Part shown: positions 5,767 through 36,340 of the stretch, piece after piece
How positions within the stretch are numbered: position 1 is the stretch's first letter
Layout: each line of letters starts with the position of its first letter
Assembly: GCA_003344405.1 (NCBI GenBank)
Contig: NOWV01000181.1
Coordinates: 34,131-74,000, forward strand
DNA length: 39,870 bases
Origin: Trichoplax sp. H2
Lineage: Eukaryota
Direction: 5' to 3'
Translations under genes and position numbers: made by a program
The notes under the pieces: model-generated
Database searches by the model: none
Told to the model about the DNA's origin: nothing
What the model saw: only the letters and a program-made list of their open reading frames with translations

Positions 5767-5776
5767 CACAAAGAAT

Positions 5777-8660: not shown

Positions 8661-9029
8661 CTGTCACAAAACAGCTTTGCAACAAGATAACGCAATGTAC
8701 GATCAATAAGTCAATTCCTTGAACCACGTATCAAGGAACCATATCTGCACCATCACAAACACTTTTGCTCTACTAGCAGACTACATAAAGACTTAAACGC
8801 CTCGTATTTTACGTTAAACACTAAGTTTGAGAATTCTCTTTATTCCAATATATACTGCATTTATATACTATTCCTCAATAGTTCATGAGTCATAGTTAAT
8901 ACAATTAACCTCGGAATCATTTACTGAATTAGATATTAATTTTAGCTACTGCTCCCTTAATGCAGACAACAGTATTTACGAACATAGACATGTAATGACT
9001 AATACAGAATAGTCAGATTACGATATGTC
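8661..9029. repeat. Right arm of the inverted repeat paired with 1..370.
   Basis: Same alignment as the left arm. The repeat ends at 9029 (gatatgtc), which corresponds exactly to window position 1. Confidence 0.85.
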
Positions 9030-10790: not shown

Positions 10791-10859
10791 GAACACGAAG
10801 ACTCTATAATATTGAAATTATCTATCATTTAGACAAATATCACTAAGTAAATCATCAAA

Positions 10860-17735: not shown

Positions 17736-19439
17736 AGTTTTCCTGTACTGTATACTGAATTTCTAGTTAAAATAAGTCATAAAATACTCCAGGAAGATAT
17801 TAACACGTTATTACTTTTTCTCTGATGAAAGTAAATGTTACAGGATGCTATATAATATGAAGTTAATGCTTAAAGGCGATAATAATTCTTCAATCTTCTA
17901 GTCTATGCAGGTTTTAAGATTGATAAATTGATTTCAATTCTGGGAGATTTTGTAAACTTTATAAAGGCATTAATTTAATACAGGTATAAAAGCTTTAGTG
18001 TTTTTTTACGTCGATGAGTAAATATTCTAGGGGGTAGAATCTAGTTTTAGATTAAAACTTGAAGATGACCGACGAATTTTCCTTTGGCTAATTCAGCCAG
18101 ATTTTCAGGCTTGATAAAACGATTTTAGTCTGAGAAAAGTTGTAAATATTTAAGGTAAGAATGGCGGAGAACGTGTATGATAGGGAATCTATTTTCCAAT
18201 AGTGAATTTTATAGGCTTGTGCCGTTCCAATTACCAAGGCAGGAATTTAGCAAAGCTAATAGCTTACTTTAGAAGACTAAATAACGATTTTCTGTGTAAC
18301 GATTTACGTTCTTCAACATTAACTAAGCAATAAGCCAATGCACAGGATCAACTTTATCTCGCTACCAAGATTGCTAGTACATACAGTTAAATGTACTGTA
18401 TATCAGTTCTTTTACGCTGCTAAAAAGAGATCCAGAAGTGGACTGGAATAAAGAAACCTGTAGATAATATAACTGTACTATTGGAAGAATACAATTTGAT
18501 CTACTTTAATACTGTGTCAATAATGGACTTAGCCTATATGCTGGAGTAACTACGATACTTCTTGCTCGTTTATTCGCGATTTGATAGCACATTTCTGCAG
18601 ATTTTAGCTTATACGAGTATGGCTATGTGCTCGGCTGATAGAATATCCTTTACAGTCTTTTAGCTTATTCCATCTGTCCGAAGGAAAGGTAATTTTATGC
18701 AAAAGATGGTTGCTTTCTAAGTTCCTCGTATCAAAATATAGTGTAAATCATATATAGCACATTGCCATGTATGGGCCCTGTTGATGCTTCTATTTGTATA
18801 CAAATACTGCAATGTCAATAAATTAAATCATTCGACATCGTATAACCTTACCTCCAACTAATATCTTGCATTTTACTATCAAAGGCCTGACTAATATAGC
18901 GATATCCTCCACTTAGTATCAATAGAAACTAGACGTTTAAACTTACCAGTATAGGTCAAAGATGTCGCTATTGGCTCTTACTTGGTATCAATTGCTGAAA
19001 TTAAATAGGGTTCGAATTTCCCCCATTTAATGAATGATCCTACGATTGACGAGTATACGCGTATGTCTGCATGTTGATAGCTCTATGGCTACAAATTACT
19101 GCTATTCTATCTGTGATGGAGGGTTAATGATTTTACAGAGGCAGATCTATAACCAATTAGAAATTGATAACAAGGCATTGCGTAAGAAAATAGATTCTTT
19201 ATCATAGACTACAACTGTGAGATAGTTACGCTAGAAAAGGTTGTAAACTGTTGTGAAATAATGTAAGAATAATGAATACTGTGACTAGTTTCGCTTATCC
19301 TCAATCTCTCCATAAATCTATAATCATCATATACCCAAGAAATTGACAACGTCTCATTATCACCACAAAGTCCAGCAATACAGGCTATGGTTTATAATAA
19401 GATGTAAAACTACTGCAAGATTTCATCTACTATCTTGCA

Positions 19440-22100
19440 GACTGCAGAAGTAGAAATTAATTTCTATTTAATGAATTAAATCAATGGACAATATGGATGA
19501 ATAAGTATCCTTGTTTACCGTAGTTGCAAGCTAGCTAGCTTTCATGTTGATCATGTCATAAGTAGTAGCAGTTGCTCGATGCCGAAAGTAAAGTAAATAA
19601 AATAAAGGATAGGATGTAAAATTACTGCTGTGAATGTAGAAGAAACTCTGTCTGTTGATAGTAAAAAAAATAACAGCAACGATGAATACGTAAGCTTAAT
19701 AACTCTAGCTTGAAGTTAACTAGCAGTCATTCAAAGGTTAACTTGATCGGTAAATTTAGGTTATAAAATTAATGATAGGAAGTAGAGCTACTAGAGATTG
19801 CCGTCGCAGATCCTGTAGACTAAAGAAAATAAACTCATTTCTATGTAATAATTGAGCTAAATAGCTACATTCATTCTTGTTCGTTTTAATATGTACAGCA
19901 TATAAATATGTAACAGTTTCTTGCTATGAACGTTTATAATGCTAAACTATGTCATAGAGTTTGCCCATCATAGGGCTTGGACTGCTAGATATGTCTAGTA
20001 GTCCATGCATAAGGTAACTGGATCAGTCAATGAGGGTTATAAAAATAATGATAGGAAACAGAACTAATAGATACTGCCATTAGAGATCACGCAAACTAAA
20101 GAAGATAAGTCTGTTTCTATAAAATAATTATTGAACTGAGTGAAGATATACATTCGTTCTTATTTGTTTAATACGAATATGTAACCTATTTATAGGATAT
20201 CACGGTCTCCCTACATCAACCTATATAATGTTACTATTGAGTAGCATTTACCTATCAGAAGCTAACTTGATCAGTTAATGCGTAATCTAGTCAACAGTAA
20301 CTTTAACTCGGTACCTTCCAGTATATATCTATATATATATATATAGATATACATGCGCACACCCATTACACTTACGTCATCGACTTTATTAGCTGGGAAT
20401 AAACCTGCCAGCGATGCTTTTGTTTTAATCGAGAGAAATAGTCTAGTTATTCATTATTAGCAGCCATGTTATTATTGAGTAATCATTTTATAGATTATTA
20501 GTTTTCAGTTTTGGATCACTTATCTAGGATGGGAATTTTTTCAAATTATACCTTTGCCTTGCAACTGAGTTATAGCCTTCCTTTCAAGAAGAAACAAGAA
20601 ATACGTCGATTAATTACCAATCATGATGGCACCATCTCCTATATCATCAATCGAAAAGTAAGAATGTGATTATCACCCGGAAGTAAAAGAAAGTGCTGTA
20701 TGGAAGATCTTTTAATTTAGAGCCAAAATGAGCATACAATCACTGATTTATTTGTAACTCTAATTTTAAGAATTAGAAAGATATCATTTTCGATCAGATC
20801 GTTGATAATTTAGATTCTGTATTAACTGTTGTCCGTAGAATGCTAGCGACTCAAGAATAGTTTTATGTTTACGTTATCAACTTTAACTGCAAACGAATAC
20901 AGAACATGTGCGAGGGATTTGAATAGTTCCTTAAATCTGTATTTGCTTTATGAATCCATTATATAATCATCGTGTGCTCTACAAATCGGTAATGGCTATA
21001 TATTATCAGTATTAGGTCCATCAATAGGGGTATACACCCTGTATAAGTGTTGATAATTTGTAAAGCTGTTTCGTGAGACATTGTGAACTATCACGCAGAA
21101 TGTAGAAATAGAAATTAATTCCTGTTTAACGAAACAAATGAACAACATGCATAAATAAGTTCCCCTTTTACTCTATTAGTAAGCTAACTAGCTCCAAGTT
21201 GATTATTTCATAAGTAGTATTAGTTACTCAAAATAGATACTCGAATTGTTCGATTAGTCAAGAAAATGAAGGATCAGATATAAAATTATTGCGTGATACT
21301 ATTAATTATTTATCACTTAGAATGTAGAAGATACTTAGTATATTCACAGTAAGATATCCTTGTATTAACAACATGGATGAATGCATTTGCTTGGATACTC
21401 TAACTGGATGTTAACTAGCAATCATTCGACGTAAACGTATATAATGTTAATAAGCTACTGATTTTGCCCATGATGGGATAATTTGATCAATCCATCAATG
21501 TAGGCTATAATATTATTGATAGGAGTAGAAATACTGCATACTCTCACCAGAGATCAAGCAGACTAAAGAACGTAAACTCATTAATATGAAATAATTGAAC
21601 TACGTGGATAAGTACGTTCATTCATTTCGTGTAATAAGTAATCTCCTGTAGGATAAAACGATCCCCGATAATAACATATACAATTTTAATATAAAATGGC
21701 ATTTGCTAATTATGGAACAACTTGATCAGTCACTGTAGCCTAATAAATTAATGATAGGAAGCAGAACTACTGCATACTGCCACTAGAGATCATGCTGACT
21801 AAAGAAGATGAATACATTTCTGTGAAAGAATTAAATTAGATAGAGAAATAAATTCATTCTTTTTCGTTTATTATGTAACCTCCTATATAATAGTTTATAA
21901 TGTTAGTATCAACTGGTAACTGCATTTGGCGGTCATAGGATAACTTGATGAGCCAAAGTAGGCTATAAAATTAATAATAGATGAATAAAACTATCGTATA
22001 CTACCAGCAGAGATCAAGCAGGTTACAAAAGATAAACTCATTTCTACAAAATAATTAAACAGCACGGACAAATGCATTCGTTCTTATTTTCTCATTATAT
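19440..22100. repeat. Complex satellite and segmental repeat array. A unit of about 235-280 bp, (g)ataacttgatcRg...taaaattaatgatagg...agagatca.gc.gactaaagaa..taaactcatttcta..aataattRaac, has copies starting at about 19737, 20013, 20261, 21474, 21714 and 21948. A higher-order block at 19440..19735 is repeated at 21095..21420.
   Basis: Multiple by-eye alignments of the unit, and of gcagaagtagaaattaatttc...ggatgaataagtatccttgt (19440) with gcagaatgtagaaatagaaattaattcc...ggatgaatgcatttgcttgg (21095). The array is interrupted at 20300..21090 by a (TA)n tract (about 20323..20350) and by copy B of the dispersed repeat. Confidence 0.7.
20520..20900. repeat. Dispersed repeat, copy B (homolog of 1205..1560).
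   Basis: See the copy A entry at 1205..1560. Confidence 0.6.
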
Positions 22101-22261
22101 CTTGGCTACTTTAATTTCCATCCTTTTGCACAGGCTCTATGTTTTATCTATATTCGGATGTCAACACAGAATTTCACTTATTAAATTACTTGTAGACGTA
22201 AAATCATGCTACTTATCCGTGAATCCTTCAAACTCTGATCGTATCGATTTATCCTCTTTAG

Positions 22262-22460
22262 ACTCACTTTCTTGTGGTCGATCAGAATGAAGACTACCTC
22301 GATAGTTATAAAGGTAGAACAGCTGATAAACTGGCTATCCCCGTAGTATCAGTGGATTTTATACACGCTTGTAACGAGAAGCAAGCATTTCTCAATCATC
22401 AAGAATTTCTTGTATCCGTTAAATTGTCACCTGAATTATTCGCTCAAGGCAAAGTGGTGG
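22262..22460 (+). CDS. PARP4: PARP4-like exon, C-terminal half of the BRCT domain.
   Basis: Translation THFLVVDQNEDYLDSYKGRTADKLAIPVVSVDFIHACNEKQAFLNHQEF.. aligns with vPARP BRCT THIILDNAD...NPDFIWKSIREKRLLD. The acceptor is ctctttag at 22260/61 and the donor is GTAAGT at 22461. An upstream BRCT exon (about 22100..22197, ..SIFGCQHRISLIKLLVD) is less certain. Confidence 0.55.
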
Positions 22461-24078
22461 GTAAGTTCAACTTTATCAATCAGTTTGAAACGGAAGAGTT
22501 TCCTGCTTAAATTTTCTCTTATAAATAACACGAATCACCATATTAAGACTCAGCTAATCGAAGACAAATAAAGACAGTGCTGTGACAGCCATGATAAATT
22601 ATCGTAGCAGTCATATTGCAGCGTAATAGTCCTGTACTTATTTAGCCTGTATAGTATTTTATAGTACTTGTATATGCTATTAACAAAAATGCCTAGAAAA
22701 AGCTTGGCTATTGCATAATGAACTCTATCTTGATTTAGAAATAGCTATTCTCGAATTTGTGATACAGTAGGGTATCCTGCTTACTTTATAAGAATAGAGA
22801 GAGAGACTATAGTGAGTCAAGAGTGATAACAAGTGATGATTTAACCGAATATAACTCTGATTGCTTCATCATGCTTCTTTAACAAATTAGATTTGAAGGA
22901 TAGGCAAAGCTTTTGGCTCTGACTTGTCCATATTTTATTTATGTAAACGTACAATGTCTCTAATGATTGCAAAATTTATCTATATTGCAGTACCAAAAGT
23001 TTCCTTTCAAGAAAAATCTAAATATTCAGCTTTTGATTTAAACAAGATACCGTAAGTTCCTATTACTATTTTCCTTTCTGTCTCTGCAAAGTTATTTGCT
23101 CATCAAAGCAAATAGTATTCATGAATGAAGTATTCAACTTCTTTTTATATTTGAGATCTTACGTTTCCATTTATTTTTGTTATAAATCTCAAAGTTCTCT
23201 GCTCATTGAAGCTAAGCTAAAAGTAAACAAGCGTTAAAACGCAAATTATATCTAAATAGTGAATGACTGATTTACAGTAGTTCTTAAATGTATTCAAGAG
23301 TCCAAATTTTCATCTTTTGTTTTATATTATTGACCTTCGAGCTGCATTTATTTGTTATATATCTCCAAAGCTCATTTTATCATTTAAGCTAACCAATTAC
23401 CTAGTAAACCAACTCACAAATAGATTTCATCTCCATAAAAAATGAATAATTAAATATAAATCTTGAATGCACTCTAAGACTCCTATTTGGTCATGCAATG
23501 CTCAGCTCAGTAATGGACTAAAGTATGCTTTGTAAAATTGGGTTTTCAAATACCTAGTTCAAGATAAAAGCATCCAGTAAATATAGTAGATATGCTGTAT
23601 AATTCTTCTCCATTGACTTGGAATGTGGCTATAAGCTAAACGTTCATAAAGCCGGTCAAGTTTTCCCTGATTTTGCCTATCTTGTCAAAGTAGTAAAAGA
23701 CATGCATTGGAACTCTGTAGAGCATTTTGAATTATAGAAATTATCACACAACCGTAATCATAAGTCCGTAGTAAATTATTGTAACTCAATCCAAATAAAT
23801 CAAGTATCCAATTTGCAGTTCCGTGCGTGTGCAACACCATTGGTAAATTAATCGAACAAACCTTTCGCAGCCATCCTTTAGGTTTCATATTTTATTATTA
23901 ATCTTATAGAGTTTGGACTGACAATGATCGCCATAATGATACCTTTCAAAGCCGGTATAAAGTTCTAAAACTAGTGCTATTAAAGGTAAGTTTAAGTGGA
24001 GTTACACTAGCCTTAACCTGTAAATTTACATTAATTTTGCATAATAATGGCCCTACTTTCAATGCTATTCAATTTTAG

Positions 24079-24378
24079 AATGATTCAGGCAGTAAGGAAA
24101 AGAAATTTGCTGGCATTGAATTGCAGCAAGGAGAAACTGAAAATTTATCCTTTCGTGTCTATGTGCATCGTAAGATTATTAAATACGAAAAGGAAGATGA
24201 AAACATCAATTTGAGAAATGCTCATTGTCAAGAAATTAAGGAATATCGATATTGTCCAAATCTTGATCAGGCTATTCAGTTATACTCCCATCTATATAAT
24301 TTACACACCAAGTCACCGTATCATATGCAGAAATGCTGGACAAGACTTCCAATTTGTATTGGTTCAGAAAGAGCAAAT
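24079..24378 (+). CDS. PARP4: PARP4-like exon in the linker between the BRCT and regulatory domains. The 3' boundary is uncertain.
   Basis: The acceptor is aattttag and the exon is phase 0. Translation GSKEKKFAGIELQQGETENLSFRVYVH.. resembles the vPARP segment ..VVVELQCSRDSRDCPFLISSHF... A possible preceding exon ends at 23985 (aag|gtaagt). Confidence 0.4.
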
Positions 24379-24811
24379 GAGGTTTATTAATTATTATATA
24401 CTATGAGCTTTCAATAATTTCAATAGTCCACCCGAATAAAATGTTAATTTGTCAAGTCTTGATTAAATAGAAATTAAGTTAAACTTCAAAGCACTGCAAC
24501 GATTACTTGCTAGGCATAAGAAAAAAAATATTTCCTACCCAAACTTATAGCGTAATAAAAGCCACTACGTCTAAGATAGCGAAAAAAATACAGATGTAAC
24601 CTTAGATTATGACAGATTTCAATCTTAAAGCTAAAAAAATCACAGTATCTGATAGAGGATAGCTTAACAATAGGAAAGGATAATAAGAAAAATGAAGCTT
24701 TAAAATTGCAGATTCCTGCAAATCATCTAATTCTTTTTCGAACTAGATCATCGTTGCTGCTATTGTCAATGTATTGTTGATTTTACCTTTCATTTAATCT
24801 GATGCTACTAG

Positions 24812-25287
24812 GTTTTAAACTATTTCCAATCTGAAACCACAGACACCATACTATCTGAAGATGTTGCTTCGTTAACGCAATATTTATGGGCAGAAGCCGT
24901 AGGAGAATTAGATGAAATATTATCATCATCCGTGGAAGAGATTACGAACGAAAATATTGCATCAGCGGAAGGGATTCTCCTCAAATTAAAGACCTGCCTA
25001 TCCGAAAACCGCTATGATCAAATCAGCAACCTTAGTCAACAATTTTACTCCTTAATTCCACACAAAAATGATGATATAACTATTGATTCATTCCGATTAA
25101 TTAGTGATAAGCAAGATCTTTGTCAATTAATACGGGACATCATTAACGTTAGTGAATTAACCGATTGGAAGATGGATAGTAGTATAAATGCCAAGTACAA
25201 AGCATTAAAGTGTGATATTCAAAATTTGGAAGAAAACAGCCATGAATTTAAATCCATAAAGAATTATACTTTATCATCCTGGAAAGG
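24812..25287 (+). CDS. PARP4: PARP4-like exon, PARP alpha-helical regulatory domain.
   Basis: ..LTQYLWAEAVGELDEIL.., AEGILLKLKTCL, LSQQFYSLIPHKN, KQDLCQLIRDIINVSE and AKYKALKCDIQNLEENSHEF match the vPARP/PARP1 regulatory domain (FYxLIPH, DLCQLIRD). The acceptor is ctactag at 24811 and the donor is agg|GTAAGT at 25288. Confidence 0.75.
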
Positions 25288-25440
25288 GTAAGTTAAAGTT
25301 ATCTTACTTTACAGTAAATAATGTTCATTACTTATTTGCTAGAAACGGAAATTCCAAAAAACTAAATACTGATTTAAAAAGTCTATAAACTTTTACGATC
25401 ACAGCGAGCCTACAACAATAAAAATTAATAGAATATTTAG

Positions 25441-25516
25441 CTTAAGTCGGCAGAGCGAAGAGAGATTATTTACTCTTGACATTGGGAATAAAAAATTACT
25501 CTTTCACGCTAGCCAT
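25441..25516 (+). CDS. PARP4: PARP4-like exon, start of the catalytic domain (His of the H-G-S element).
   Basis: ..EERLFTLDIGNKKLLFHASH matches vPARP ..RLLLHGS. The acceptor is atatttag and the donor is cat|GTAAGT. The phase is consistent with the previous exon. Confidence 0.65.
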
Positions 25517-25610
25517 GTAAGTCCAACTCTGATCTATCGCTAGTCAATGTTGAAACTGTTTTAGAAGATAACGAAATTGACTTATTCTGGAATTCTATTC
25601 TATAATATAG

Positions 25611-25639
25611 GTTGCTAACTTTGTTGGGATCCTTTCCAG
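25611..25639 (+). CDS. PARP4: PARP4-like 29-nt micro-exon.
   Basis: Translation VANFVGILS(R) matches vPARP VQNIVGILCR. The acceptor is ctataatatag, the donor is cag|GTGATC, and the phases fit the flanking exons. Confidence 0.6.
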
Positions 25640-25802
25640 GTGATCTTAATTTCAATAAACCTCATAAATTGTTTAAAATCGATTGCTTAGCTAATTTCCA
25701 AGTCGAGTTAATACGAATAGTCAGGAATGGGCAACGATATGACCATAAGTGCGACAGGTGATGGAATTATGTTTTAATAATCTTTCAATTTATTTTTTGC
25801 AG

Positions 25803-25901
25803 AGGTTTATTAATGCCTAGAATTGTCGTTAGCAGTCATGGTGGTAAAAGGTCTGATGTTGGTCACCTCGGCAGTGGAATTTATTTTGCTGATTCACTTA
25901 A
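25803..25901 (+). CDS. PARP4: PARP4-like exon, catalytic domain (nicotinamide pocket).
   Basis: GLLMPRIVVSSHGGKRSDVGHLGSGIYFADSLN matches vPARP GLLLPKVVEDRGVQRTDVGNLGSGIYFSDSLS. The acceptor is ttttttgcag and the donor is ttaa|GTATGC. Confidence 0.75.
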
Positions 25902-26285
25902 GTATGCAAGATTATTATTTTACGACCATAAGATATCCTCTAGTTCCTGTATTTAATATCCTTTAAGAAAATGGAAGTATAAACCCGTGATTTTATTGAA
26001 TCACTAGCTCTTAACCATTTTCCAATAATAAAGTTTACTAGTGATCAGATTCGCTTTTTTTCCAATCAAATAGGAAAATTTCCGGTTACAATTATAATGT
26101 AGGCTTATTATTTCTGATATTAAAGTAGGAAGCATTTGATACTCTCTGAATAGTGACTATTGCAATTTTAATTACGATCTTCAACATTTTTATTTGATAT
26201 TTATTGACAACTTAAATAGCAGTAAAATTAATACTATCAAGCAATGATTATTAACTATTCGAATATCTATCTAAATTTGTTTTAG

Positions 26286-26370
26286 CACCAGCTTGCAGTT
26301 TACTGATGTTGGGAAAATGTCTGGAAATCGAATGATGATTATTAGTGAAGTTGCTTTAGGCAAGAGCAAG
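26286..26370 (+). CDS. PARP4: PARP4-like exon, catalytic domain.
   Basis: TSLQFTDVGKMSGNRMMIISEVALGKSK matches vPARP TS..GETDGTRLLLICDVALGKCM. The acceptor is tgttttag and the donor is aag|GTAAGT. Confidence 0.75.
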
Positions 26371-26471
26371 GTAAGTTACGCTAAGGGTATAGCAAAATGC
26401 TACGACTGTTAAATACTCTATATACAAGCAAGAAAAAATTAACTATTACTAATGTTTTCTAATTGTAATAG

Positions 26472-26570
26472 GAATATACTAATAAACAGACAGAATTAAA
26501 GTCTCCTCCACAAGGTTATGATAGCGTAATTGGAATTGCTGAAACTGAACAACAATCATCCATGTATAAG
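26472..26570 (+). CDS. PARP4: PARP4-like exon, catalytic domain. It probably ends in a GC donor. An alternative GT donor at 26530 would shorten it.
   Basis: EYTNKQTELKSPPQGYDSVIGIAETEQQSSMYK matches vPARP ..EAPPGYDSVHGVSQTASVTTDFE. Ending at aag|GCAATA keeps the frame and gives exactly the vPARP spacing to the next exon. Confidence 0.55.
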
Positions 26571-26656
26571 GCAATACTAGCTATTTACGAAGTACTTGGC
26601 GTTATAATCACCTTATCAATATCGAAATTTATTCGACTTTTAACTTTTAATTGCAG

Positions 26657-26700
26657 AATAACGAATATGCTATATTTGATGAAAAGCAACAAAAACTCAG
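26657..26700 (+). CDS. PARP4: PARP4-like exon carrying the catalytic Glu.
   Basis: NNEYAIFDEKQQKL matches vPARP DDEFVVYKTNQVKM and the PARP1 LYNEYIVYD motif. The acceptor is aattgcag and the donor is GTAATT. Confidence 0.7.
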
Positions 26701-26768
26701 GTAATTCTTTATGCGTATATCAATCTATGCTTTAAAGTAATATTAACTAGGTTAAAATTTCTTTTCAG

Positions 26769-26887
26769 ATATTTAGTCGAATTCAACTTAGCTAGCGATC
26801 CGAAAACGACATCAACGTTAAAATTAAATTATCCGGAAACTTTGCAAGAACAGCCTGCGCCTTCGCATCTGTTTCTTGATAATTCAG
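26769..26887 (+). CDS. PARP4: PARP4-like exon, end of the catalytic domain.
   Basis: (R)YLVEFNLASDPKTTSTLKLNYPETLQEQPAPSHLFLDNS matches vPARP KYIIKFSMPGD... The acceptor is cttttcag and the donor is GTCAAT. Confidence 0.6.
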
Positions 26888-27018
26888 GTCAATATTAATA
26901 TTGTAGCAATATAGAGAATCGATTTCATAGCAGGATACAACTTAAAAGTGTTCAATTCCTATATTCATACCGTCAACCTTAGCCGAAATTGATATAACCA
27001 AGCTACTAAATGGGACAG

Positions 27019-27137
27019 CCAAAAGAGTCAGTGAAGCTGGATTAAAGACTTCAAATGATATTTCCATACCATTAACAGACGTTCATTTCAGAGCTAAATT
27101 ATTGGATTTAGCCGCAGAGGTAGACATAATTTACACT
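27019..27137 (+). CDS. PARP4: PARP4-like exon, start of the VIT domain. The acceptor is one of 27019, 27031 or 27037.
   Basis: ..ISIPLTDVHFRAKLLDLAAEVDIIYT matches vPARP ..LVPLEDVHIKGRIIDTVAQVIVFQTY. The donor is act|GTGAAA, chosen so that the exon ends in phase 0 as the next exon requires. Confidence 0.5.
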
Positions 27138-27412
27138 GTGAAAGGGTACTAAGAGTATGAATTAGGATAGAGAATATATATTTTAATGGCCTTTGTTATA
27201 ATAAAATAGTTAATTTAGAATTCCCATTATAGTGTAAATTGCTTATAACTTTATTAAGAGCTAAATTCGTTCTGAAGAGATCGAATTTAAACTGAGATAT
27301 CGATGATGGCAATTGACTAACGATTATTTAGTGCCAATGCTGATATTCTAAATTTCATTAAAAATTGATTTATTAGTGACCTTGACTAATTATTCTGCTA
27401 ATTTATTTATAG

Positions 27413-27497
27413 GTGGTGGTATTACAATGCTATTTTAACAAATCATCACAACCAATTGAAGCAAAATATGTATTTCCTCTGGATGATAGAGCAGCAG
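27413..27497 (+). CDS. PARP4: PARP4-like exon, VIT domain.
   Basis: VVVLQCYFNKSSQPIEAKYVFPLDDRAA matches vPARP ..TNKSHVPIEAKYIFPLDDKAAV. The acceptor is atttatag and the donor is GTAATT. Confidence 0.7.
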
Positions 27498-27817
27498 GTA
27501 ATTCATGAATATTAATTACGATAGTTTGTAATTTGAGGTTTATGGGTGATAGGTAAAGCTCACTTGCATGAGGTCTACCAGGCTATAATTACGGAGGAAA
27601 ATGAAGCATTTCGCATAGCTAATATTAAACATAAACTGAGTGCTTAATTGTATTTTGCAATTAAAAGTATACAAATTTCTATTACTGTGCAGTTAGCTAA
27701 AGTATAATTGGCGTATGAGCAGTAATAAAGAAAAAAAATGATATCGAAGATTATTTTTTGATTGTTTGACGAGCTGAAATGCCCATATGTAGTACTAATT
27801 TTATTCCATCCCTACAG

Positions 27818-27951
27818 TATGTGGGTTTGAAGCCTTTATCAATAACAAACATATTATTGGCCAAGTCAAAGAAAAAGAGAAAGCGCATAAAGAATATGAA
27901 GCTGCTGTAGCTAGAAAAGATGGAGCTTACCTAATGGACGAAGAATCACCA
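27818..27951 (+). CDS. PARP4: PARP4-like exon, VIT domain.
   Basis: (V)CGFEAFINNKHIIGQVKEKEKAHKEYEAAVARKDGAYLMDEESP matches vPARP CGFEAFINGKHIVGEIKEKEEAQQEYLEAVTQGHGAYLM. The acceptor is ccctacag and the donor is GTATGA. Confidence 0.8.
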
Positions 27952-28182
27952 GTATGAACTTTCAAACACAACATAGCTACTATTTCATTAATGAAAATCA
28001 TTTCAACTTTTTACGTATTTAATGAGAGCGGTTGCGGTAATTTCCTGTCTACAATAAATTTATGTTAATATACGAGTATATAAGTTAATAACCACAGGCA
28101 ATATTAGCCATCTTTTGAAATTCACTTCCTTTCAATGCATAGAAAGTTAAGCAGTATTGCTTTATATTTACCATTTCTTTAG

Positions 28183-28347
28183 GATATTTTTACTGTCAGC
28201 GTTGGGAATTTACCTCCTAATTCTAAAGTATTAATCAAAATAACTTATGTCACCGAGTTGTCTATGGAAGGTGACTGTTTCGACTTTTTCCTGCCATCTA
28301 ATCTGGCTCCGTGGAAAAAACAAGAAGCACTATCCAATGTAACCCAG
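28183..28347 (+). CDS. PARP4: PARP4-like exon, end of the VIT domain.
   Basis: DIFTVSVGNLPPNSKVLIKITYVTELSMEGDCFDFFLPSNLAPWKKQEALSNVTQ matches vPARP DVFTVSVGNLPPKAKVLIKITYITELS...APWQQDKALNEN. The acceptor is ttctttag and the donor is GTTTGC. Confidence 0.85.
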
Positions 28348-28427
28348 GTTTGCGTAGAATTTTTACTTTCATCGCTAGACATATGGTTAATTAGTATCTA
28401 ACTACTGAAATTTAAAATCCCATTTAG

Positions 28428-28468
28428 GATGCAGTGAGTACGGTCAAGATTAACGAAGTCAAATCAGT
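28428..28468 (+). CDS. PARP4: PARP4-like short exon. The donor is at 28467 or 28469.
   Basis: Translation is DAVSTVKINEVKS. The acceptor is catttag and the donor is GTGTAAGG. The phase depends on the choice of acceptor for the next exon. Confidence 0.45.
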
Positions 28469-28743
28469 GTAAGGCAAAAACTTTAAGAAATGATACTTTT
28501 ATTATTGAGTAGAGTACATAGCAATAAATATAGTCGGATTATAAAGTTAAAAATGCAATAGTTATTTTACTAAATAATACCTTCTTAGACGGTGTACTGG
28601 TAATTTAAGCGCCAGCGAGATTTTAAAAGCCTGACAGTAATTTGCTAGCTATCGTTTATAGAGAATAAGATCCCCTATCTTGCAATTATTTTACTGCACT
28701 CGAGGATTTATGTGCTTGATTATTTCATCATTATTGATAATAG

Positions 28744-28825
28744 CAATGCAACGGTTCAGGTTCGAGTTGAAATGCCGTTCGAAATTAGATCGATTAGCTC
28801 GCCAACGCATCAAATTAGACAAAAA
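28744..28825 (+). CDS. PARP4: PARP4-like exon. An alternative acceptor at 28760 is possible.
   Basis: ..NATVQVRVEMPFEIRSISSPTHQIRQK. The donor is aaa|GTAAGC. Confidence 0.4.
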
Positions 28826-28892
28826 GTAAGCAATCCATTCTTTATCCAATAAAAATAAATTAAACGAGATAGCGAAACAATAATATTTACAG

Positions 28893-29027
28893 ACGACTGC
28901 TACTAAAGCTGTGGTGGAAACTGGACAAATGACAAAGTTCGATGATGGATTTCGATTATTAATACGATTAGCGGAAATTCACGTACCAAGAATGTGGGTT
29001 GAAAAATATCCAGATACTGATAGCCAG
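28893..29027 (+). CDS. PARP4: PARP4-like exon, inter-domain region.
   Basis: TTATKAVVETGQMTKFDDGFRLLIRLAEIHVPRMWVEKYPDTDSQ matches vPARP ..LSAAYLPRMWVEKHPEKESE. The acceptor is atatttacag and the donor is GTCAGT. Confidence 0.7.
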
Positions 29028-29421
29028 GTCAGTTGTTTCTATTCTATCTCGAAGTCAGTGCGAGAAAATAAGGATAGAAGTGCTTAAATAATTCATAGTC
29101 ATTCTTAGTAATGGCCAATATTGATAGAGAAGATACCCAGTCAGGCTTTGCCGTTTAGTATAATTGTACGCGAGATATAATATCGAATAATTTAATATTA
29201 AATTCGATGGTCTTAAACTATCTTTAAATTCTGATTCAATGAGTATAGTAGAATCAAATTGGTTTTCTTTAGTATAACCGCACATAAATGTCAAATAATT
29301 TAACTATATAATCTTGATAGTATTAAATGCTATTTAATAGTCTAATATTTATTGAACCGTTATAATACAGATGCATCTTTATGTGTACCTCTAGGCATGC
29401 ATGTTAACTTTCTATCCAGAG

Positions 29422-29487
29422 TTTGATGTAACAGAAAATCCTCGACCAGAAATTATCATAGCTCTAGATATGTCAAATTCCATGAAG
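29422..29487 (+). CDS. PARP4: PARP4-like exon, start of the vWA domain (MIDAS D-x-S-x-S).
   Basis: FDVTENPRPEIIIALDMSNSMK matches vPARP ..EVIICLDCSSSME. The acceptor is tatccagag and the donor is GTGCCG. Confidence 0.65.
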
Positions 29488-29980
29488 GTGCCGTTATTAC
29501 ATCTATGAATTAGTTATAAAGTTTGTTTGATTACCAACATTCTATTCTATGTTGATACGTCATAAAAAAGAAATTTTAATTAGGCAAGAGCCGTTATTGC
29601 CCGTAATCGTAGACAAGCAGTTGTAACCACGATCTTTCCTCTAGTCTAGAAATTAAGTAATTAAAATATGAGTTAAAATGAGAAATATAAGATAATTAAT
29701 AAACAGTGTATAATGAATAGATCCAATAATATCTCCTAGTATATTCTTAACTAATATAGAATTGACATACATCACATTATCAACGCAATATAATTAATAT
29801 ATGTAGATGCAAGATTACAGTAACGACATAAAAGAATATTTCTTTAAGATTCTTTTAGTCTACTTTAGTAGTAAAGAAATCGGAACAACGATATTTCCAA
29901 ATGCCATCATCTATATTTCGAAAAGCTTTATTTATGTCTTATTTTACTACTAAGCCCAATAATTCTATCAATAACTGTAG

Positions 29981-30071
29981 CAATGCTTAATGGATACCCA
30001 GAAGATTGCAGCTTTAATCTTGACGAATCTTCCTCCAGAGTGTCGATTTAATATTGTTGTATTTGGTTCAG
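29981..30071 (+). CDS. PARP4: PARP4-like exon, vWA domain.
   Basis: QCLMDTQKIAALILTNLPPECRFNIVVFGS matches vPARP ..LVGEKQKVNIIQFGT. The acceptor is aactgtag and the donor is GTAAAT. Confidence 0.65.
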
Positions 30072-30154
30072 GTAAATGCAACCAAATTACTGTTGCACAA
30101 AGTAAATCTAAAAAAATTGACATAAGTTAAATCGTGTCTTGATTGTTTTCTTAG

Positions 30155-30228
30155 CACATAACGAGCTATTCCCGATGCACCAAGAAGTGAGTAAAGAATC
30201 GGTTAATATGGCAATAAAATTTATCGGA
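30155..30228 (+). CDS. PARP4: PARP4-like exon, vWA domain.
   Basis: (A)HNELFPMHQEVSKESVNMAIKFIG. The acceptor is ttttcttag and the donor is GTAAGT. Confidence 0.6.
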
Positions 30229-30385
30229 GTAAGTAGATAATAAATCTGGAAAATAAATATTCATAGTAGTGTTTAAAAAATTCATAGATAAAGGATTAGA
30301 GCTAATAGATTTACGATTCTAGTACATGACTATTGCCTTGAGAAGCTACAATCATCAGTTAACATAATTATTTTATGATTTATAG

Positions 30386-30585
30386 TCCTTGTCGGCGTCT
30401 TGGGGAAACAGCAATTTTTACCACGTTATCGATAATTTTACGCATATCGTTAAAGAACTAAAAGCCAATTCCGTTTCTAACGTATTCTTAATTTCCGATG
30501 GACATTTTGGCGATGAAAATTCCATTACTGCCATTTTAAGGCGTGATAAAATAGACAATTTGAGATTATTTACCTTTTCTACTGG
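30386..30585 (+). CDS. PARP4: PARP4-like exon, vWA domain.
   Basis: SLSASWGNSNFYHVIDNFTHIVKELKANSVSNVFLISDGHFGDENSITAILRRDKIDNLRLFTFSTG matches vPARP ..TDFWKTLRYLSLLYPARGSRNILLVSDGHLQDESLTLQLVKRSRPHTRLFACGIGS. The acceptor is atttatag and the donor is GTCAGT. Confidence 0.8.
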
Positions 30586-30725
30586 GTCAGTAGTATTTTT
30601 AATATTTCTGATACTCGATTTTATGAACCAAGTCATTTATCATTAATGATAATCCAATAAGATCTGATATAAAGAAGAATCCGCAGAATCGGTTTGCTAA
30701 TTTATCTTCTCTACGCATACAATAG

Positions 30726-30825
30726 AGATACGAGTAATCGTTATTTTATGCGTACTTTGGCGAAAATTGGAGCTGGCTATCATGAACACTTCGATACAAA
30801 ATTTAGATCCAAATGGCAACAAAAG
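30726..30825 (+). CDS. PARP4: PARP4-like exon, end of the vWA domain.
   Basis: (G)DTSNRYFMRTLAKIGAGYHEHFDTKFRSKWQQK matches vPARP ..TANRHVLRILSQCGAGVFEYFNAKSKHSWRKQ. The acceptor is atacaatag and the donor is GTTCAA. Confidence 0.75.
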
Positions 30826-30946
30826 GTTCAAAAATCGTCGTATAATGAGTGATTGAAGGGATAAAATATATTCTGGCCTAATAATATTTAAAATTTATCC
30901 TTTGTTTATACTATTTCACGTGTTATATCTAATCTAACCTAATTAG

Positions 30947-31042
30947 ATACAAAATCAAATTTATAAAGCTTCTCAACCAACATTAACATCAGTAGCTGTC
31001 CACTGGCAGCAATTTGATGATAATCCTCAACAACTTATGCAG
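30947..31042 (+). CDS. PARP4: PARP4-like exon, ITIH-like region.
   Basis: IQNQIYKASQPTLTSVAVHWQQFDDNPQQLMQ matches vPARP IEDQMTRLCSPSCHSVSVKWQQLNPDVPEALQ. The acceptor is cctaattag and the donor is GTGATT. Confidence 0.75.
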
Positions 31043-31215
31043 GTGATTATAGTCAAATTCTGTATACATTCAGTGAATCTATCGGCTGCTAGAATTGAAT
31101 AAATCTTCAAATTTAGCTCTTTGGGTATCGATATAAGAGATGATTCAACACTATTACTTCAATAAAATAAATTACCTTTGATTGCTGACCATATTTTAAT
31201 TTTCTTTTACAATAG

Positions 31216-31290
31216 GCTCCCGCTGATATCGTTAGTTTGTTTAATGGATCAAGACAAGTTATATATGGTTTTGTTTCCAATTGTACGCAG
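31216..31290 (+). CDS. PARP4: PARP4-like exon.
   Basis: APADIVSLFNGSRQVIYGFVSNCTQ matches vPARP APAQVPSLFLNDRLLVYGFIPHCTQ. The acceptor is tttacaatag and the donor is GTTAGG. Confidence 0.8.
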
Positions 31291-31382
31291 GTTAGGAAAT
31301 AGAATCTTTATCTCACGAGCATTTGTAATTTTTGTAATGATCCTGTTAGTATTTTATGACATGAATTATGCCTGATTAATAG

Positions 31383-31463
31383 GCTACTTTGGAAGCCAGC
31401 ATTGGTGAAATCCAAATTTCTACTGTCGTATCTACATCCGAATTGTGTATCACAACAGGAAGG
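31383..31463 (+). CDS. PARP4: PARP4-like exon.
   Basis: ATLEASIGEIQISTVVSTSELCITTGR matches vPARP ATLCALIQEKEFRTMVSTTELQKTTG. The acceptor is gattaatag and the donor is GTGGGT. Confidence 0.7.
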
Positions 31464-31793
31464 GTGGGTCTTAATAAAATTAAAACTTGGATTTAACGCA
31501 ATAGTTATCCTTAGGTTGAAATGGAGACTTTAGCTTAGTCGTTGTTCGATTTTCAGGCTTCTATTTATAATTACATTATTAAATGTCATTTTACACATTA
31601 ATTGATTGGTGCATTGACTGTAATAGAGCAAATAACGTTTAATCTAAGTATTGGTAATTGGTAAATGAGGAGATAGATTTGCAAATAATGTAGAAAATAT
31701 TAAAAACATGATATTGGCACTTTAACTGTGTCATATTTAAATTCGATTTTTGACATCTATTTTAAACCTTAAATCTACTATCAATATCACTAG

Positions 31794-31874
31794 ATTCTAC
31801 ATCAATTGACAGCGCGAGCTCTAATTCGTGATTACGACGACGGAGTCTATAATATAAAGCGCACCACCCATGAG
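31794..31874 (+). CDS. PARP4: PARP4-like exon.
   Basis: ILHQLTARALIRDYDDGVYNIKRTTHE matches vPARP MIHKLAARALIRDYEDGILHENETSHE. The acceptor is atatcactag and the donor is GTAGCT. Confidence 0.8.
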
Positions 31875-31964
31875 GTAGCTATCAAAAATATCAAAATTGG
31901 AACGCAGTGTAATCTATATTACAGATAATTAGATATTATGAATAACCGCTATGACGATGTACAG

Positions 31965-32066
31965 GCTTTTAAAATAGATCGGAAAGAAGATATCATTAAA
32001 ATAAGCCAACGCTATTCTATTGTCAGCCCATTTACGAGTTTCGTAGCCATTGAAGATCGTAGCCAG
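31965..32066 (+). CDS. PARP4: PARP4-like exon.
   Basis: AFKIDRKEDIIKISQRYSIVSPFTSFVAIEDRSQ matches vPARP ..LIIKLSKENSLITQFTSFVAVEKRDE. The acceptor is gatgtacag and the donor is GTAGCA. Confidence 0.8.
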
Positions 32067-32155
32067 GTAGCATAAATGAGATATCTTGTCGCAGAGATTA
32101 AAATAAACAGCAGATTTATTTATTAAATGTAAATATAATTTACACTTTCGTACAG

Positions 32156-32251
32156 GACCAAAGTGACCGAAGAGAATCCTTCGATTTAAGTAAATTAATA
32201 AGACTTGAAGACATCGATGATCTATCTTATGTGGGTTGGAGCGGAAAGACG
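32156..32251 (+). CDS. PARP4: PARP4-like exon.
   Basis: DQSDRRESFDLSKLIRLEDIDDLSYVGWSGKT. The acceptor is ttcgtacag, the donor is GTAAGG, and the exon is phase 0 at both ends. Confidence 0.55.
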
Positions 32252-32718
32252 GTAAGGCGATCCTATAATTGGCAGTACTAATTTCAACGTTAACTAAATG
32301 GACACGGTAGTTATTTTGTTATTCTAGCAGTAGTTGTATTTACATCCAAAAGACGGAAGTAAAATAGAACACCGATTGCTCTTAAATTTCTATATTAAAA
32401 CTTATCTATCATTTAAGTAGTAAACTATTTAAAGTAAATTAGCTAGATTCGAATTATTCCAGCAAGCTTGTACTTCCAATGCTTTTAATCCACTGTCAAC
32501 AAAGTATCAGTAACCCTAGCAATCAATTCTATATCGCATACTCAATATTGATATGTTACTATGGGTATAAAATTTACTTCGGTATGGTAGCTTTTTTATC
32601 TAGTTTTTAGTTTTAATAATTTGCGATCTCTAATATGACGATCATGTTCTATTCCATTGGCAATATCAGTTATCCATTTACTTACTTGAATGGTAACTTT
32701 GTTTTATGTATCGGCCAG

Positions 32719-33078
32719 GAAGACGATAATAAAGATGGTATGATATCTGGTAAAAAATCTGGAATTGGAGATTCACGACAATCTTCCAGAACGAGAGAAA
32801 ATGTGATTCGGTGTTATACTCCAAGTTCATTCCCTTCAAGCTGTGCAAGTACGTCATCGGATGAATTCTCTACAAATAGCGAATCAAACTATTCTATAAT
32901 ATCGGAAACGGAATTACCGGAATTTTCCGATCCTGAGGTTACCATTGATGTTATCAATAAAGATGCGGAAGAGGAAGATGAAATTGAAGAAGAAGAAGCA
33001 GCATATTGCTGTGGAATAGATGAAGATGAAGAAAATGATGATGATTTATGTAATGAATATATATTAGAGGCGAAAGAA
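32719..33078 (+). CDS. PARP4: PARP4-like exon encoding an acidic, Ser-rich low-complexity segment. The 3' end is uncertain.
   Basis: The acceptor is tatcggccag and the frame is open from phase 0. Translation: EDDNKDGMISGKKSGIGDSRQSSRTR...DAEEEDEIEEEEAAYCCGIDEDEENDDDLCNEYILEAKE. A candidate donor is gaag|GTACTA at 33079. It lies within the ORF-track ORF 32635..33189. Confidence 0.4.
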
Positions 33079-34945
33079 GGTACTAGGATCGTATCAGATG
33101 ATTTTAATGGTCTACTTTTAGGAAGTAATCAATGGATAAATAATAATTCTAATACTTTAATACATGAGAATAGATTAATAAAAAACTAGCCTTACCTTAG
33201 TAACTAATTTTGGCTGGATTTGAAATTAATATAAATCATTATAAAGTACCGTTATCACTTAAAAGTTTGAATTCCTTGCTTAAACATTAAATTTGATTAA
33301 TGACATCTATCGAGCCAGATGAGTGTGAACCAGAAATTTGCATGGCATTTTCAAGTAAAGCAATTGATGACAGCGAAGAAGGGGAAATGCTTGCTTTACC
33401 TAAAAAGGTTTTTCATTGCTTAAACTAGAGTATTATTTAGCCATGATGAGATTATTTACCAATAGAACAATTTACAACTTGGTATTATAGATATATTGTC
33501 CGCTTTTCTTCCCTATGTATAGCATTTAATGCGATTTACATTAATGTATTCAATGCTATTCATTATTCTAATTCTCACTCAAATATGAACTTCTGATTAA
33601 TCATTAGTACAATATGCATAATTATGAGACGATAACAATATTAAGCTCATTATTTAAAATTACAATGATAATTACAGGTAGTACAGCATTGATTCTTATA
33701 GTTTTAAGTTATAGCCCTCTTAGTAAAGGCAAAAATCGCCAACTTACTACAAGTTCATTTTTAATTTCATTCTGCTTTTAAAATAACAATGAATCTTTAA
33801 AGTTGCCTTCATAGCATTACGTAACAAAAAACACCTTACAGAACTTGTTTAGTAATTTCATTGCTCCATCTTATTTCATTTTTAGAAAGAATTTTACGCG
33901 GCTGCAGGTAAACATTTCAAAATTATACCCACCATGAAGAAGAAAGCCTTATCCAAAAAAAAAATGGACAGGAGTAATCATAATTTCATACTAACTGATT
34001 AGATCTATAGAACTCAAGGCATCATTAGCTTATTCTAGTCTGTCAGGTAAAAATTATTTTATATCAGAAAATCTTTTTATTCGTTTAAAAGGGACAGAAA
34101 AGGTCCTTGAAGATCAATTTAGGAACTTTTTTGATCCATCGACCTCATCAAAGCACCTTTCAACTCGAACGCCTGAGAAGGTGAGCAATTACTCTTACTG
34201 AGTATAAAATTGGGTTTGGACATGCTTGAGGAGTAAATTATCGACACAAATTCAATTTCCGTCTTTAGCTTGAAAGAGCAATAGTAGGTAGTTCTGAAAA
34301 CTTCTCCATGGAAGAACAGACGTATACGGCAGAAATAAAAGATGAGAGAACGCAAAGTAAACAGTAAATCTATCTATGAAATTTCAAATGATATTCAATA
34401 TGTATATATAGTATATATCTATCAGATAGAAACTGTCTATTAATCGTTATTTTTATATTTCCAATAAATTAAGAACTATCTATAGGTATGAAGCAGACTA
34501 GAGGTGCATTAGATTCTTCTATAGAAGCAATTTCATCATTTAATTCAAATTCTCCACGTACTGCTCAAGATGGCCTTCAAGCAGGGGTTAGTAAAACTTA
34601 AAGTGTATTCAAACAGCTTCAGAATTTGAATTTTGCTCTAGGAAGTCATCATCCATTATATTATATTTGCTTTTTATCCGCAGAAATTAATTCGGAAGTT
34701 TAGAAGCCTAGCTACTCTCAGAAGAATGGAGGAGTCAAGTAATAATATAATTGAATTTTACTTATTAAGGCGATATTTTGCGTAGAATAACTAAGCTGGC
34801 AGTTTCATTTTTGGATAGAAAATGAGCTTTAATAACTTGTATACATTTATATATTTATGCTATGTTCAATTTACACTCACACAATAGATTAAGGTATTTT
34901 ATTTAACTGAAATAGCTTAAAAAATTAAAATCATGTTATATACAG

Positions 34946-35554
34946 CTATCCCACCTCCTCCGTCATCTTTAGGACCCACACCGACTTTAAGATCTCAACA
35001 TTTTCGGATAAGTAAAAGTCGGATAGCTTCAGGACCTCCGCCAGCACAAGCATCTCAACCATGTCCACCTCCTCCACTTCCAGGATCTTCAGCATCTGAG
35101 CTATCTCCGCCTCGTTCATATTCACAATCTAAGACTAATGAAGAACTATTAGTTCAACAAATACAGAAGCCTAAACCAAGTTCGTCTATTGAAATAAACA
35201 AGCACAAGGCGAAGATAGAATATCAATACGCTAGTATCAATGGAGCTAAGGAGGATATTGCAGAAATAGAACCTAACAGGGCGGCTAATCTTGGTTCACT
35301 GGCAACTTCTGCTAAGGCCTTAAAAGGATTCTTACGTGTCGGGAGACAAACTAATGGCTTTCTATCTAGAACTAACTTTAATTCTTTAGGCGCAAGTGCT
35401 GATGATTATTCTAATTTAGCTAAGGAGGAAACATTAGACGATGATAAGAAGGTAGAATACAGGCAAATGAAATTCAGAAACTCTAAAGCGCTAGCAAAAA
35501 CGTACAAATCTGCGAATACTAAAGACAATCTTGTTGATGAGCCTGAAAATCCAA
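34946..35554 (+). CDS. PARP4: PARP4-like exon encoding a Pro-rich low-complexity segment. It is not the terminal exon: a donor precedes the ORF's stop.
   Basis: The acceptor is ttatatacag. Translation: IPPPPSSLGPTPTLRSQHF...PPPLPGSS...VDEPENP. The donor is cca a|GTAAGA at 35555. Candidate upstream small exons are at about 34486..34586 and 34684..34738. Confidence 0.5.
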
Positions 35555-35703
35555 GTAAGAATTAAATTGCAATATAATCAATTTATTAATAATTTACCCG
35601 CACTAAATTATGTTCTAATAGCCAGTAAGTTAATCTAAGAAAGAGTTTGTAGATAAATTATATTAGTCGAGAAATTAATCCTAATCGTTTTAATTATTCA
35701 TAG

Positions 35704-35762
35704 AGGAAATGAAAAATTTGACCTATATAAATTGCAGGGAATTGATGATGTTTCAAGTATTG
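35704..35762 (+). CDS. PARP4: PARP4-like small exon.
   Basis: (K)EMKNLTYINCRELMMFQVL. The acceptor is attcatag and the donor is ttg|GTACGA. It restores phase 0, as required by the next exon. Confidence 0.45.
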
Positions 35763-35924
35763 GTACGAAATAATTTAATATAATAAAGTCATGATTAGAA
35801 CATAGACTTACACTATCGATATAAGGAATCTTTTTAAAGATACACTAACGATAAGCTGTTTTTTATAGCTGCCGATGTTTAGTATAACAGGATATCGTAA
35901 ACTGATATTTCTTAATATTTAAAG

Positions 35925-36024
35925 GATGGTTATTGGGAAGTAACACCGGAAATAGCTGCAATAATAAGAATATCTGTGGAAAAGTTATTTAGATTACTAA
36001 CTGAAGCTGGAATTTATTCATTGG
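35925..36024 (+). CDS. PARP4: PARP4-like exon resembling the C-terminal region that binds major vault protein (MVP).
   Basis: DGYWEVTPEIAAIIRISVEKLFRLLTEAGIYSL(G) matches vPARP EDGFWKLTPELGLILNLNTNGLHSFLKQKGIQSLG. The acceptor is atttaaag and the donor is GTAAAA. Confidence 0.75.
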
Positions 36025-36137
36025 GTAAAATCGAATTAATCTACAGTAGTACTTTCAATACTATCATGCCATTGTAACTGATACTTTTATACCATGTAAA
36101 GTTTGTTCTAATATTTAATTTTATTCACTTTATTTAG

Positions 36138-36340
36138 GCTCTAAAGCTTGTAAAGATATTGTTCGTATGGTATTTACCAAGATTGTAATCGTTATTCTTG
36201 GAAAGATTGCACAGTTGCAGGAGTCACTAGCACGTGCTACGAAATGGCTGGTATTCATGGATAAAAAATATCCATCGCTGCTATATCGTTTTGAATTAGG
36301 ATCAAATTGGGAATGTGTGGCTAGAAAATGCCAGCTTTAG
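36138..36340 (+). CDS. PARP4: PARP4-like terminal coding exon, with a TAG stop at 36338..36340.
   Basis: (G)SKACKDIVRMVFTKIVIVILGKIAQLQESLARATKWLVFMDKKYPSLLYRFELGSNWECVARKCQL* matches vPARP VKGRECLLDLIATMLVLQFI...YPSICPRLELGNDWDSATKQLLG. The acceptor is tttatttag. Confidence 0.7.

Follow-up and report, generated by a model that had tools for sequence, protein, structure and literature searches.

The window analyzed here is a stretch of 39,870 nt from contig NOWV01000181.1 of Trichoplax sp. H2 (assembly GCA_003344405.1, positions 34,131 to 74,000), and its principal feature is a gene for PARP4, the vault PARP (vPARP). The window is AT-rich (~31% GC), and between 20.5 and 36.3 kb its + strand holds many short open segments that tblastn places in the strict N- to C-terminal order of PARP4. 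Spliced together, these segments give a model of 43 exons, whose coding sequence runs from 20529 to 36340 (5565 nt, 1854 aa), ends on a TAG at 36338-36340, and is free of internal stop codons throughout the joined frame. The gene is intact and protein-coding, with ~43 exons read from the + strand. We are highly confident that it is PARP4 of clade 5A, with the ADP-ribosyltransferase (ART) domain, the linker, and the C-terminal MVP-interaction domain carried by one gene. The product would consist, in this order, of BRCT, a region at the WGR position, HD, an ART domain with an H-Y-E triad, VIT and vWA, a disordered linker rich in acidic residues, Pro, and Ser, and a helical MVP-interaction domain at the C-terminus. 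Human PARP4 (UniProt Q9UKK3; PDB 8sx1, 9bw6, 9bw7, 11jf) has the same domain order, from BRCT through the MVP-interaction domain.

Among all PDB sequences, the spliced protein matches human PARP4 best (E=1.4e-247, 828 bits); the two are collinear over residues 262-1237 versus 251-1219, and the BRCT domain and the C-terminus each give a separate further match to human PARP4. PARP1, PARP2, and PARP3 score at most 76 bits in the same search. All named top database hits are likewise PARP4, and a database of 5.8 billion sequences held no near-identical PARP4 protein. The closest relatives outside the placozoans are the cnidarian PARP4 proteins (Desmophyllum pertusum, Acropora, and Nematostella A7RPC2), which share the N-terminal architecture. 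ITIH heavy chains and VWA5A have the VIT and vWA module in common with the window protein (ITIH4 at E=3e-14) and are both devoid of BRCT, HD, and ART; membership in that family is ruled out by the presence of these three domains ahead of VIT and vWA in one open reading frame (ORF).

An earlier note had recognized a vPARP ortholog at 22100-36340. The assignment is upheld by the Pfam matches, by the similarity to human PARP4, and by a coral PARP4 that is 48% identical over 745 aa in a comparison of the N-terminal part, as the coral database entries are partial. The proposed range indeed ends exactly where the stop codon does; the gene starts 1.6 kb before the range, at 20529, exon 1 having been missed, and the ~35 junctions that had been counted become 42 introns in the model. 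All 16 peptide blocks quoted in the note are present in the spliced model, on the + strand and in the order given: DFIHACNEK (residues 75-83), FYSLIPH (334-340), DLCQLIRD (358-365), DVGHLGSGIYFADSL (480-494), NNEYAIF (557-563), PIEAKYVFPLDD (670-681), CGFEAFIN (686-693), VSVGNLPPNSKVLIKITY (734-751), PRMWVEK (857-863), LDMSNSM (894-900), LISDGH (991-996), ALIRDY (1149-1154), FTSFVA (1190-1195), CCGIDEDEEND (1330-1340), DGYWEVTPE (1755-1763), and YPSLLYRFELGSNW (1832-1845). Given the Pfam bit scores and the human PARP4 E-value, this agreement is far beyond chance.

Exons and domains of the PARP4 gene

Exons were placed by tblastn with PARP4 proteins of corals, vertebrates, rotifers, and Trichoplax, after which the three-frame translations were read and each junction was set by phase, splice signal, and homolog register. 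The 42 introns measure 45-1604 nt (median 134.5 nt); 30 were set by collinearity with homologs and the three C-terminal ones by homology, while the nine linker introns are tentative. One of the comparison genes lies next to the window itself. Just upstream and on the same strand, the Trichoplax adhaerens scaffold DS985264.1 carries at ~421,008-440,371 a second, apparently full-length PARP4-like gene, which spans from an exon 1 beginning MGIFTNSIF to a C-terminus ending in YPSLLYRMELGQNWES; the annotation has only a partial product for it, TRIADDRAFT_32651 (760 aa). The annotated model stops ~9 kb short of the window, whereas its C-terminal exons, located by tblastn, come within ~0.2 kb of the window. 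This paralog shares scaffold, strand, and exon structure with the window gene, is 62% identical to it over 771 aa, and likewise has MINT-like C-terminal exons. Exons 1-31 align to the paralog and to coral PARP4 without any gap at a junction.

All five Pfam domains for which the earlier note had proposed a check (BRCT, PARP_reg, PARP, VIT, and VWA) exceed their gathering thresholds in the spliced protein, with cut-offs of 26.8 bits for PARP_reg and 21.3 bits for BRCT. The BRCT domain is divided between two exons. Exon 1 (20529-20657) encodes 43 residues, opening at its ATG with MGIFSNYTF and including MGIFSNYTFALQL, and supplies the N-terminal half; it was found by tblastn to vertebrate PARP4 N-termini, which its start resembles, has an in-frame stop at 20499, 30 nt upstream of the ATG, and ends on the donor GTAAGA. 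Exon 2 (22262-22460), which contains THFLVVDQNED and DFIHACNEK, supplies the second half. Only with exon 1 included does the domain score 33.5 bits with PF00533 and 32.7 bits with PF16589 over residues 2-92, of which residues 2-80 are spanned by the Pfam BRCT match. The full BRCT domain claimed in the earlier note thus exists, although half of it is encoded by an exon that the range then proposed leaves out. The human PARP4 BRCT structures 9dfo/9dev match at E=3e-4. Position 22358 in exon 2 is an N in the reference assembly and a T in the window (codon 76, TTT, Phe, within DFIHACNEK).

Exons 3-5 (22991-24381; 22991-23051, 23910-23985, and 24079-24381) lie between BRCT and HD and are joined by phase-consistent GT-AG junctions. 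Their region is 60-65% identical to the paralog locus and partly conserved with coral PARP4 (from residue 198). For the WGR-like region, no Pfam match was obtained at E<=1, and phmmer left residues 110-260 unaligned to human PARP4; following PMC10450202, exons 3-5 may be taken to occupy the place of the WGR-like domain of human PARP4 by position only. Pfam models gave no match for the WGR-like, post-vWA, or MINT regions of the spliced protein. The ORF at 23603-23734 (+ strand, beginning FPDFAYLVKVVKDMHW) was considered as the human PARP4 'PQDFEVAKY' block and rejected as intronic, since no acceptor fits the phase of exon 3; unlike this ORF, exon 23910-23985 (TFQSRYKVLKLVLLK) fits both phase and homology. 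Within the rejected stretch, FPDFAYLVKVVKD mimics human PQDFEVAKYNTLEKV and can mislead manual gene models. A second intronic stretch that mimics PARP4 and forms a trap of the same kind is the read-through after exon 14 (27120-27149, + strand, VDIIYTVKGY followed by a stop), which looks like the start of exon 15. It was rejected in favor of the donor GAG/GTAGAC, with which the alignment is free of gaps.

The HD or PARP_reg domain, with FYSLIPH and DLCQLIRD, is encoded by exon 6 (24812-25287; PF02877, 34.5-37 bits). It sits directly N-terminal to ART and aligns to the human PARP4 crystal chain 8sx1 from residue 266. The catalytic domain occupies exons 7-13 (25405-26887; 25405-25516, 25611-25639, 25803-25901, 26286-26370, 26472-26570, 26657-26700, and 26769-26887) and matches PF00644 with 107.2 bits over residues 399-577 of 1854, and 8sx1/8swy at E=4e-69 and 3e-46. 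Its His449, Tyr489, and Glu559 align with the H-Y-E triad of human PARP4, so that the triad is kept, as the earlier note had stated, and ADP-ribosyltransferase activity would be expected from it. The residue after the triad His is Ala, giving H-A-S in place of the human H-G-S. The note had seen this substitution correctly; it is no peculiarity of the gene. In a set of 40 PARP4 homologs, 16 have Gly in the middle of H-x-S, another 16 have Ala (birds, frogs, and some fish), and eight have Ser (corals, with H-S-S, and fish); the Trichoplax paralog has H-A-S as well. H-A-S is therefore a normal PARP4 variant.

VIT is encoded by exons 14-17 (26983-28347; 26983-27119, 27413-27497, 27818-27951, and 28183-28347), which score 125.6 bits with PF08487 and 53.3 bits with PF13757 (VIT_2) and are 70-85% identical to the paralog per exon. 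The rest of the ITIH-like region, with vWA (the MIDAS-type motif LDMSNSM and LISDGH) and the ALIRDY/FTSFVA block, follows in exons 18-31 (28428-32251; 28428-28468, 28744-28825, 28893-29027, 29395-29487, 29981-30071, 30155-30228, 30386-30585, 30726-30825, 30947-31042, 31216-31290, 31383-31463, 31794-31874, 31965-32066, and 32156-32251). The vWA domain scores 63.9 bits with VWA_3, 43.4 with VWA, and 35.0 with VWA_2, and the collinearity with human PARP4 extends as far as residue 1219.

Reference locus and the exon 11/12 junction

The gene and its place in the vPARP family had been published before, as had the inference of vaults. Positions 6250-27730 of the window align to scaffold DS985264.1 of the T. 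adhaerens assembly GCA_000150275.1 with 99.54% nucleotide identity over 21.5 kb. Together with the 99% identity of a neighboring cytochrome P450 to TRIADDRAFT_32665, this assigns the window to T. adhaerens or to a lineage or haplotype very close to it. The reference annotation of the scaffold has a product of 1262 residues that starts at the same ATG as exon 1. In the alignment of Citarelli et al. 2010, the protein appears as Trichoplax_adhaerens_61586 (fgeneshTA2_pg.C_scaffold_25000056, residues 381-585) and was grouped with human PARP4 in clade 5 (5A), the vPARP clade (PMC2964712). The JGI 61586 sequence is identical to the window model over residues 381-556 and then continues with 'AILAIY', the GT-donor alternative discussed below. 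Compared with the window model, the JGI 61586 or 1262-residue call thus starts at the same point of the same locus, has seven codons more before the catalytic Glu, and ends without the linker or a MINT-like domain. The public model appears truncated at 1262 of ~1700-1850 residues, without the MVP-interaction domain.

The additional codons concern the intron between exons 11 and 12 (26571-26656, + strand), which directly precedes the catalytic Glu and is probably a GC-AG intron with the donor AAG/GCAATA. A GC donor is proposed because the region of the catalytic Glu would otherwise be out of register with the homologs: only the GC-AG junction keeps '...EQQSSMYK/NNEYAIF' equal in length, and free of gaps, to the paralog, coral, and human PARP4. 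Canonical GT donors were considered for this junction and rejected, since the in-phase options either remove VIGIAETEQQSS (12 residues) or add 7-10 residues. JGI 61586 uses a GT donor 21 nt downstream and thereby reads seven additional codons (AILAIYE), which are absent from the paralog, coral, and human PARP4; the public model is probably mis-spliced at these seven codons beside the catalytic Glu.

Where the gene overlaps the reference (7.2 kb), the two sequences differ by 10 exonic substitutions in 2053 bp, six of them synonymous and four non-synonymous, the latter amounting to four amino-acid differences in the first 600 residues. Exon divergence is 0.49%, and intron divergence 0.66% (34 differences in 5149 bp). 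The numbers are small, and the pattern is consistent with purifying selection. That the locus might be a pseudogene in decay or an assembly artefact is hardly conceivable. The sole difficulty that could be cited for it is the one junction with a non-GT donor, against which stand 43 exons spliced without a stop, a syntenic and 99.5% identical copy in an independent assembly, a per-site excess of synonymous over non-synonymous differences, and intact catalytic and structural motifs.

Linker, C-terminal domain, and probable extent of the transcript

The linker starts with exon 32 (32719-33124), which is acidic and Ser-rich (CCGIDEDEEND) and whose donor position is uncertain. It lies in an open frame of 189 codons in DNA of 31% GC, with a coding score of 0.284 per codon versus 0.008 in intronic pseudo-exons. 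Exons 33-39 (33334-34738; 33334-33407, 33886-33907, 34011-34046, 34092-34180, 34269-34356, 34486-34586, and 34684-34738) are tentative small linker exons, proposed from their codon usage and from GT-AG splices that link them in consistent phase. Exons 33, 36, 37, and 38 score higher for coding potential than any intronic AG..GT open segment of comparable kind, and exon 34 is marginal. Exon 40 (34946-35554) is again part of the linker, Pro-rich and Ser-rich, with an open frame of 214 codons, a coding score of 0.261, and a donor (GTAAGA) in phase with exon 41. Skipping exon 35, which has only 36 nt, keeps the frame and also removes the 45-nt intron, and a splice from exon 32 directly to exon 40 is in phase as well; the length of the protein therefore ranges from ~1700 to 1854 residues.

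In human PARP4, an intrinsically disordered linker connects the ITIH-like region to the MVP-interaction domain (PMC10450202). The acidic and the Pro-rich exons, which the earlier note had taken for lineage-specific insertions, are the local form of a conserved feature: their sequence is lineage-specific as claimed, and their position is that of the human linker, so that they are not extra insertions. With all tentative exons, the Trichoplax linker has ~500 aa versus ~340 in human PARP4, to which it is unrelated in sequence, and may be the longer of the two. Even between the two Trichoplax paralogs the linkers are not alignable, a single non-significant match (E=9.3) being all that was obtained.

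Exons 41-43 (35667-36340; 35667-35749, 35925-36024, and 36138-36340, including the TAG) encode a helical domain homologous to the MVP-interaction domain of human PARP4, which has been delimited as MINT, residues 1562-1724 (PMC12280208), and as MVPID, residues 1570-1724 (PMC10450202). They were set by homology to human PARP4 and the paralog, and the same exons are found at the paralog locus. Searched alone against the PDB with phmmer, the last 164 aa match human PARP4 1581-1700 at E=2.2e-8, which bears out, at the level of sequence homology, the MVP-binding-like C-terminal region of the earlier note. Relative to the human MINT domain, that of the window protein lacks ~25 residues.

Exons 32-43 probably belong to the same transcript as exons 1-31. 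The alternative is a BRCT-PARP-VIT-vWA gene ending near 32.3 kb and an independent downstream gene with the Pro-rich and MINT-like parts. Several observations speak for such a division and against the long model: the reference annotation ends at 1262 residues and does not join the C-terminal exons, a separate gene of 148 residues was called in the equivalent linker region at the paralog locus, linker exons 33-39 lack support from any detectable homolog, and exons 35 and 39 score poorly for coding potential. Ab initio predictors, however, often split genes at low-complexity linkers. Moreover, the domains follow one another on a single strand exactly as they do in human PARP4 and end with the MINT homology, an unbroken, phase-consistent GT-AG chain without a stop links both parts, most of the intervening exons have coding potential, and the paralog repeats the same arrangement. 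We therefore regard two separate genes as quite improbable and retain the single PARP4 gene.

Neighboring genes and possible vault association

The remainder of the window contains three intronless ORFs and a repeat. Two of the ORFs, at 5753-6910 and 10851-11993 (both + strand, 386 and 381 codons), encode rhodopsin-type seven-transmembrane receptors with DRY-like motifs ('VDRY'/'IDRY'). They are ~74% identical over 266 nt near their 3' ends, and the pair looks like a tandem duplication. The reference has a 7tm_1 gene (PF00001) at 5753-6910 and no annotation for the second receptor ORF in the locus compared. At 16254-17762 (- strand) lies a cytochrome P450 of the CYP3 clan, 492 aa from the first Met and 99% identical to TRIADDRAFT_32665. 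It is part of a large expansion specific to Trichoplax, and many of its paralogs there are 45-75% identical to it. A repeat of ~370 bp with the open frame RNIRSISQFLEPRIKE.YLH.HKHFCSTSRLHKDLNASYFTLNTK is present at 1-370 and, inverted and with 96% identity, at ~8663-9031. The copy at 1-369 is missing from the syntenic position of the reference scaffold, whose alignment to the window begins at 370, which suggests an insertion or an assembly difference.

For the PARP4 gene itself, the earlier note had concluded that the organism builds vaults. This inference is not new, as Trichoplax has been reported to encode MVP (PMC2655684) and the gene has stood in the vPARP clade since 2010 (PMC2964712). 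The MVP gene is not within the window, and Rfam and tRNA scans of the window returned no vault RNA, no other Rfam family, and no tRNA. By homology, the C-terminal domain would attach the enzyme to the inner face of the MVP cage, and the catalytic domain would, as in mammals, transfer ADP-ribose from NAD+ to the enzyme itself, to MVP, or to cargo. According to cryo-EM, residues S1614, K1618, Q1682, and R1689 of human PARP4 contact MVP (PMC12280208). Three of these four are kept in the window protein, where S1614, K1618, and R1689 correspond to S1786, K1790, and R1838; R1689 is the surface residue whose conservation Suskiewicz et al. pointed out, and it has no equivalent in VWA5A (PMC10450202).

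Starting from a MINT/MVPID domain with most of its contact residues kept, we tentatively propose, at slightly less than even confidence, that the docking of PARP4 inside vaults dates to early animals. Three points count against docking by the window protein. The equivalent of human Gln1682 is a Lys in Trichoplax; according to Lodwick et al., only vertebrates have the MVP residues to which PARP4 binds (PMC12280208); and with a second full-length paralog at hand, either or both copies could be vault-associated. Since the MVP contact residues are reported to be vertebrate-only, docking of the Trichoplax PARP4 onto vaults is plausible rather than assured. The two old paralogs differ at the Lys1618 position, where the upstream gene has Ala, and could represent one docking and one free copy. 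The window copy might even have diverged after the duplication and left the vaults as a cytosolic or nuclear ADP-ribosyltransferase, with the upstream paralog as the true vault PARP, a scenario in keeping with the low identity of the two full-length copies over the aligned residues and with the occurrence of human PARP4 outside vaults as well (PMC2964712). We consider it unlikely, as it is the window copy that keeps the Ser, Lys, and Arg contact equivalents; if one copy lost docking, the Ala of the paralog at the Lys1618 position makes the paralog the likelier one.

As PARP4 orthologs are known across vault-bearing animals, the discovery value of the locus is small, and its main use is in curation. 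The existing record is extended by a gene model long enough to include the MVP-interaction domain, by a probable GC-AG intron and a full-length paralog, and by the three of four contact residues that are kept. According to a suggestion of Lodwick et al. 2025 (PMC12280208), it was in higher organisms that PARP4 opportunistically took up its place in vaults. The conserved docking residues bear on whether the association of PARP4 with vaults predates the vertebrates, and docking in early animals, if true, would run against that suggestion.

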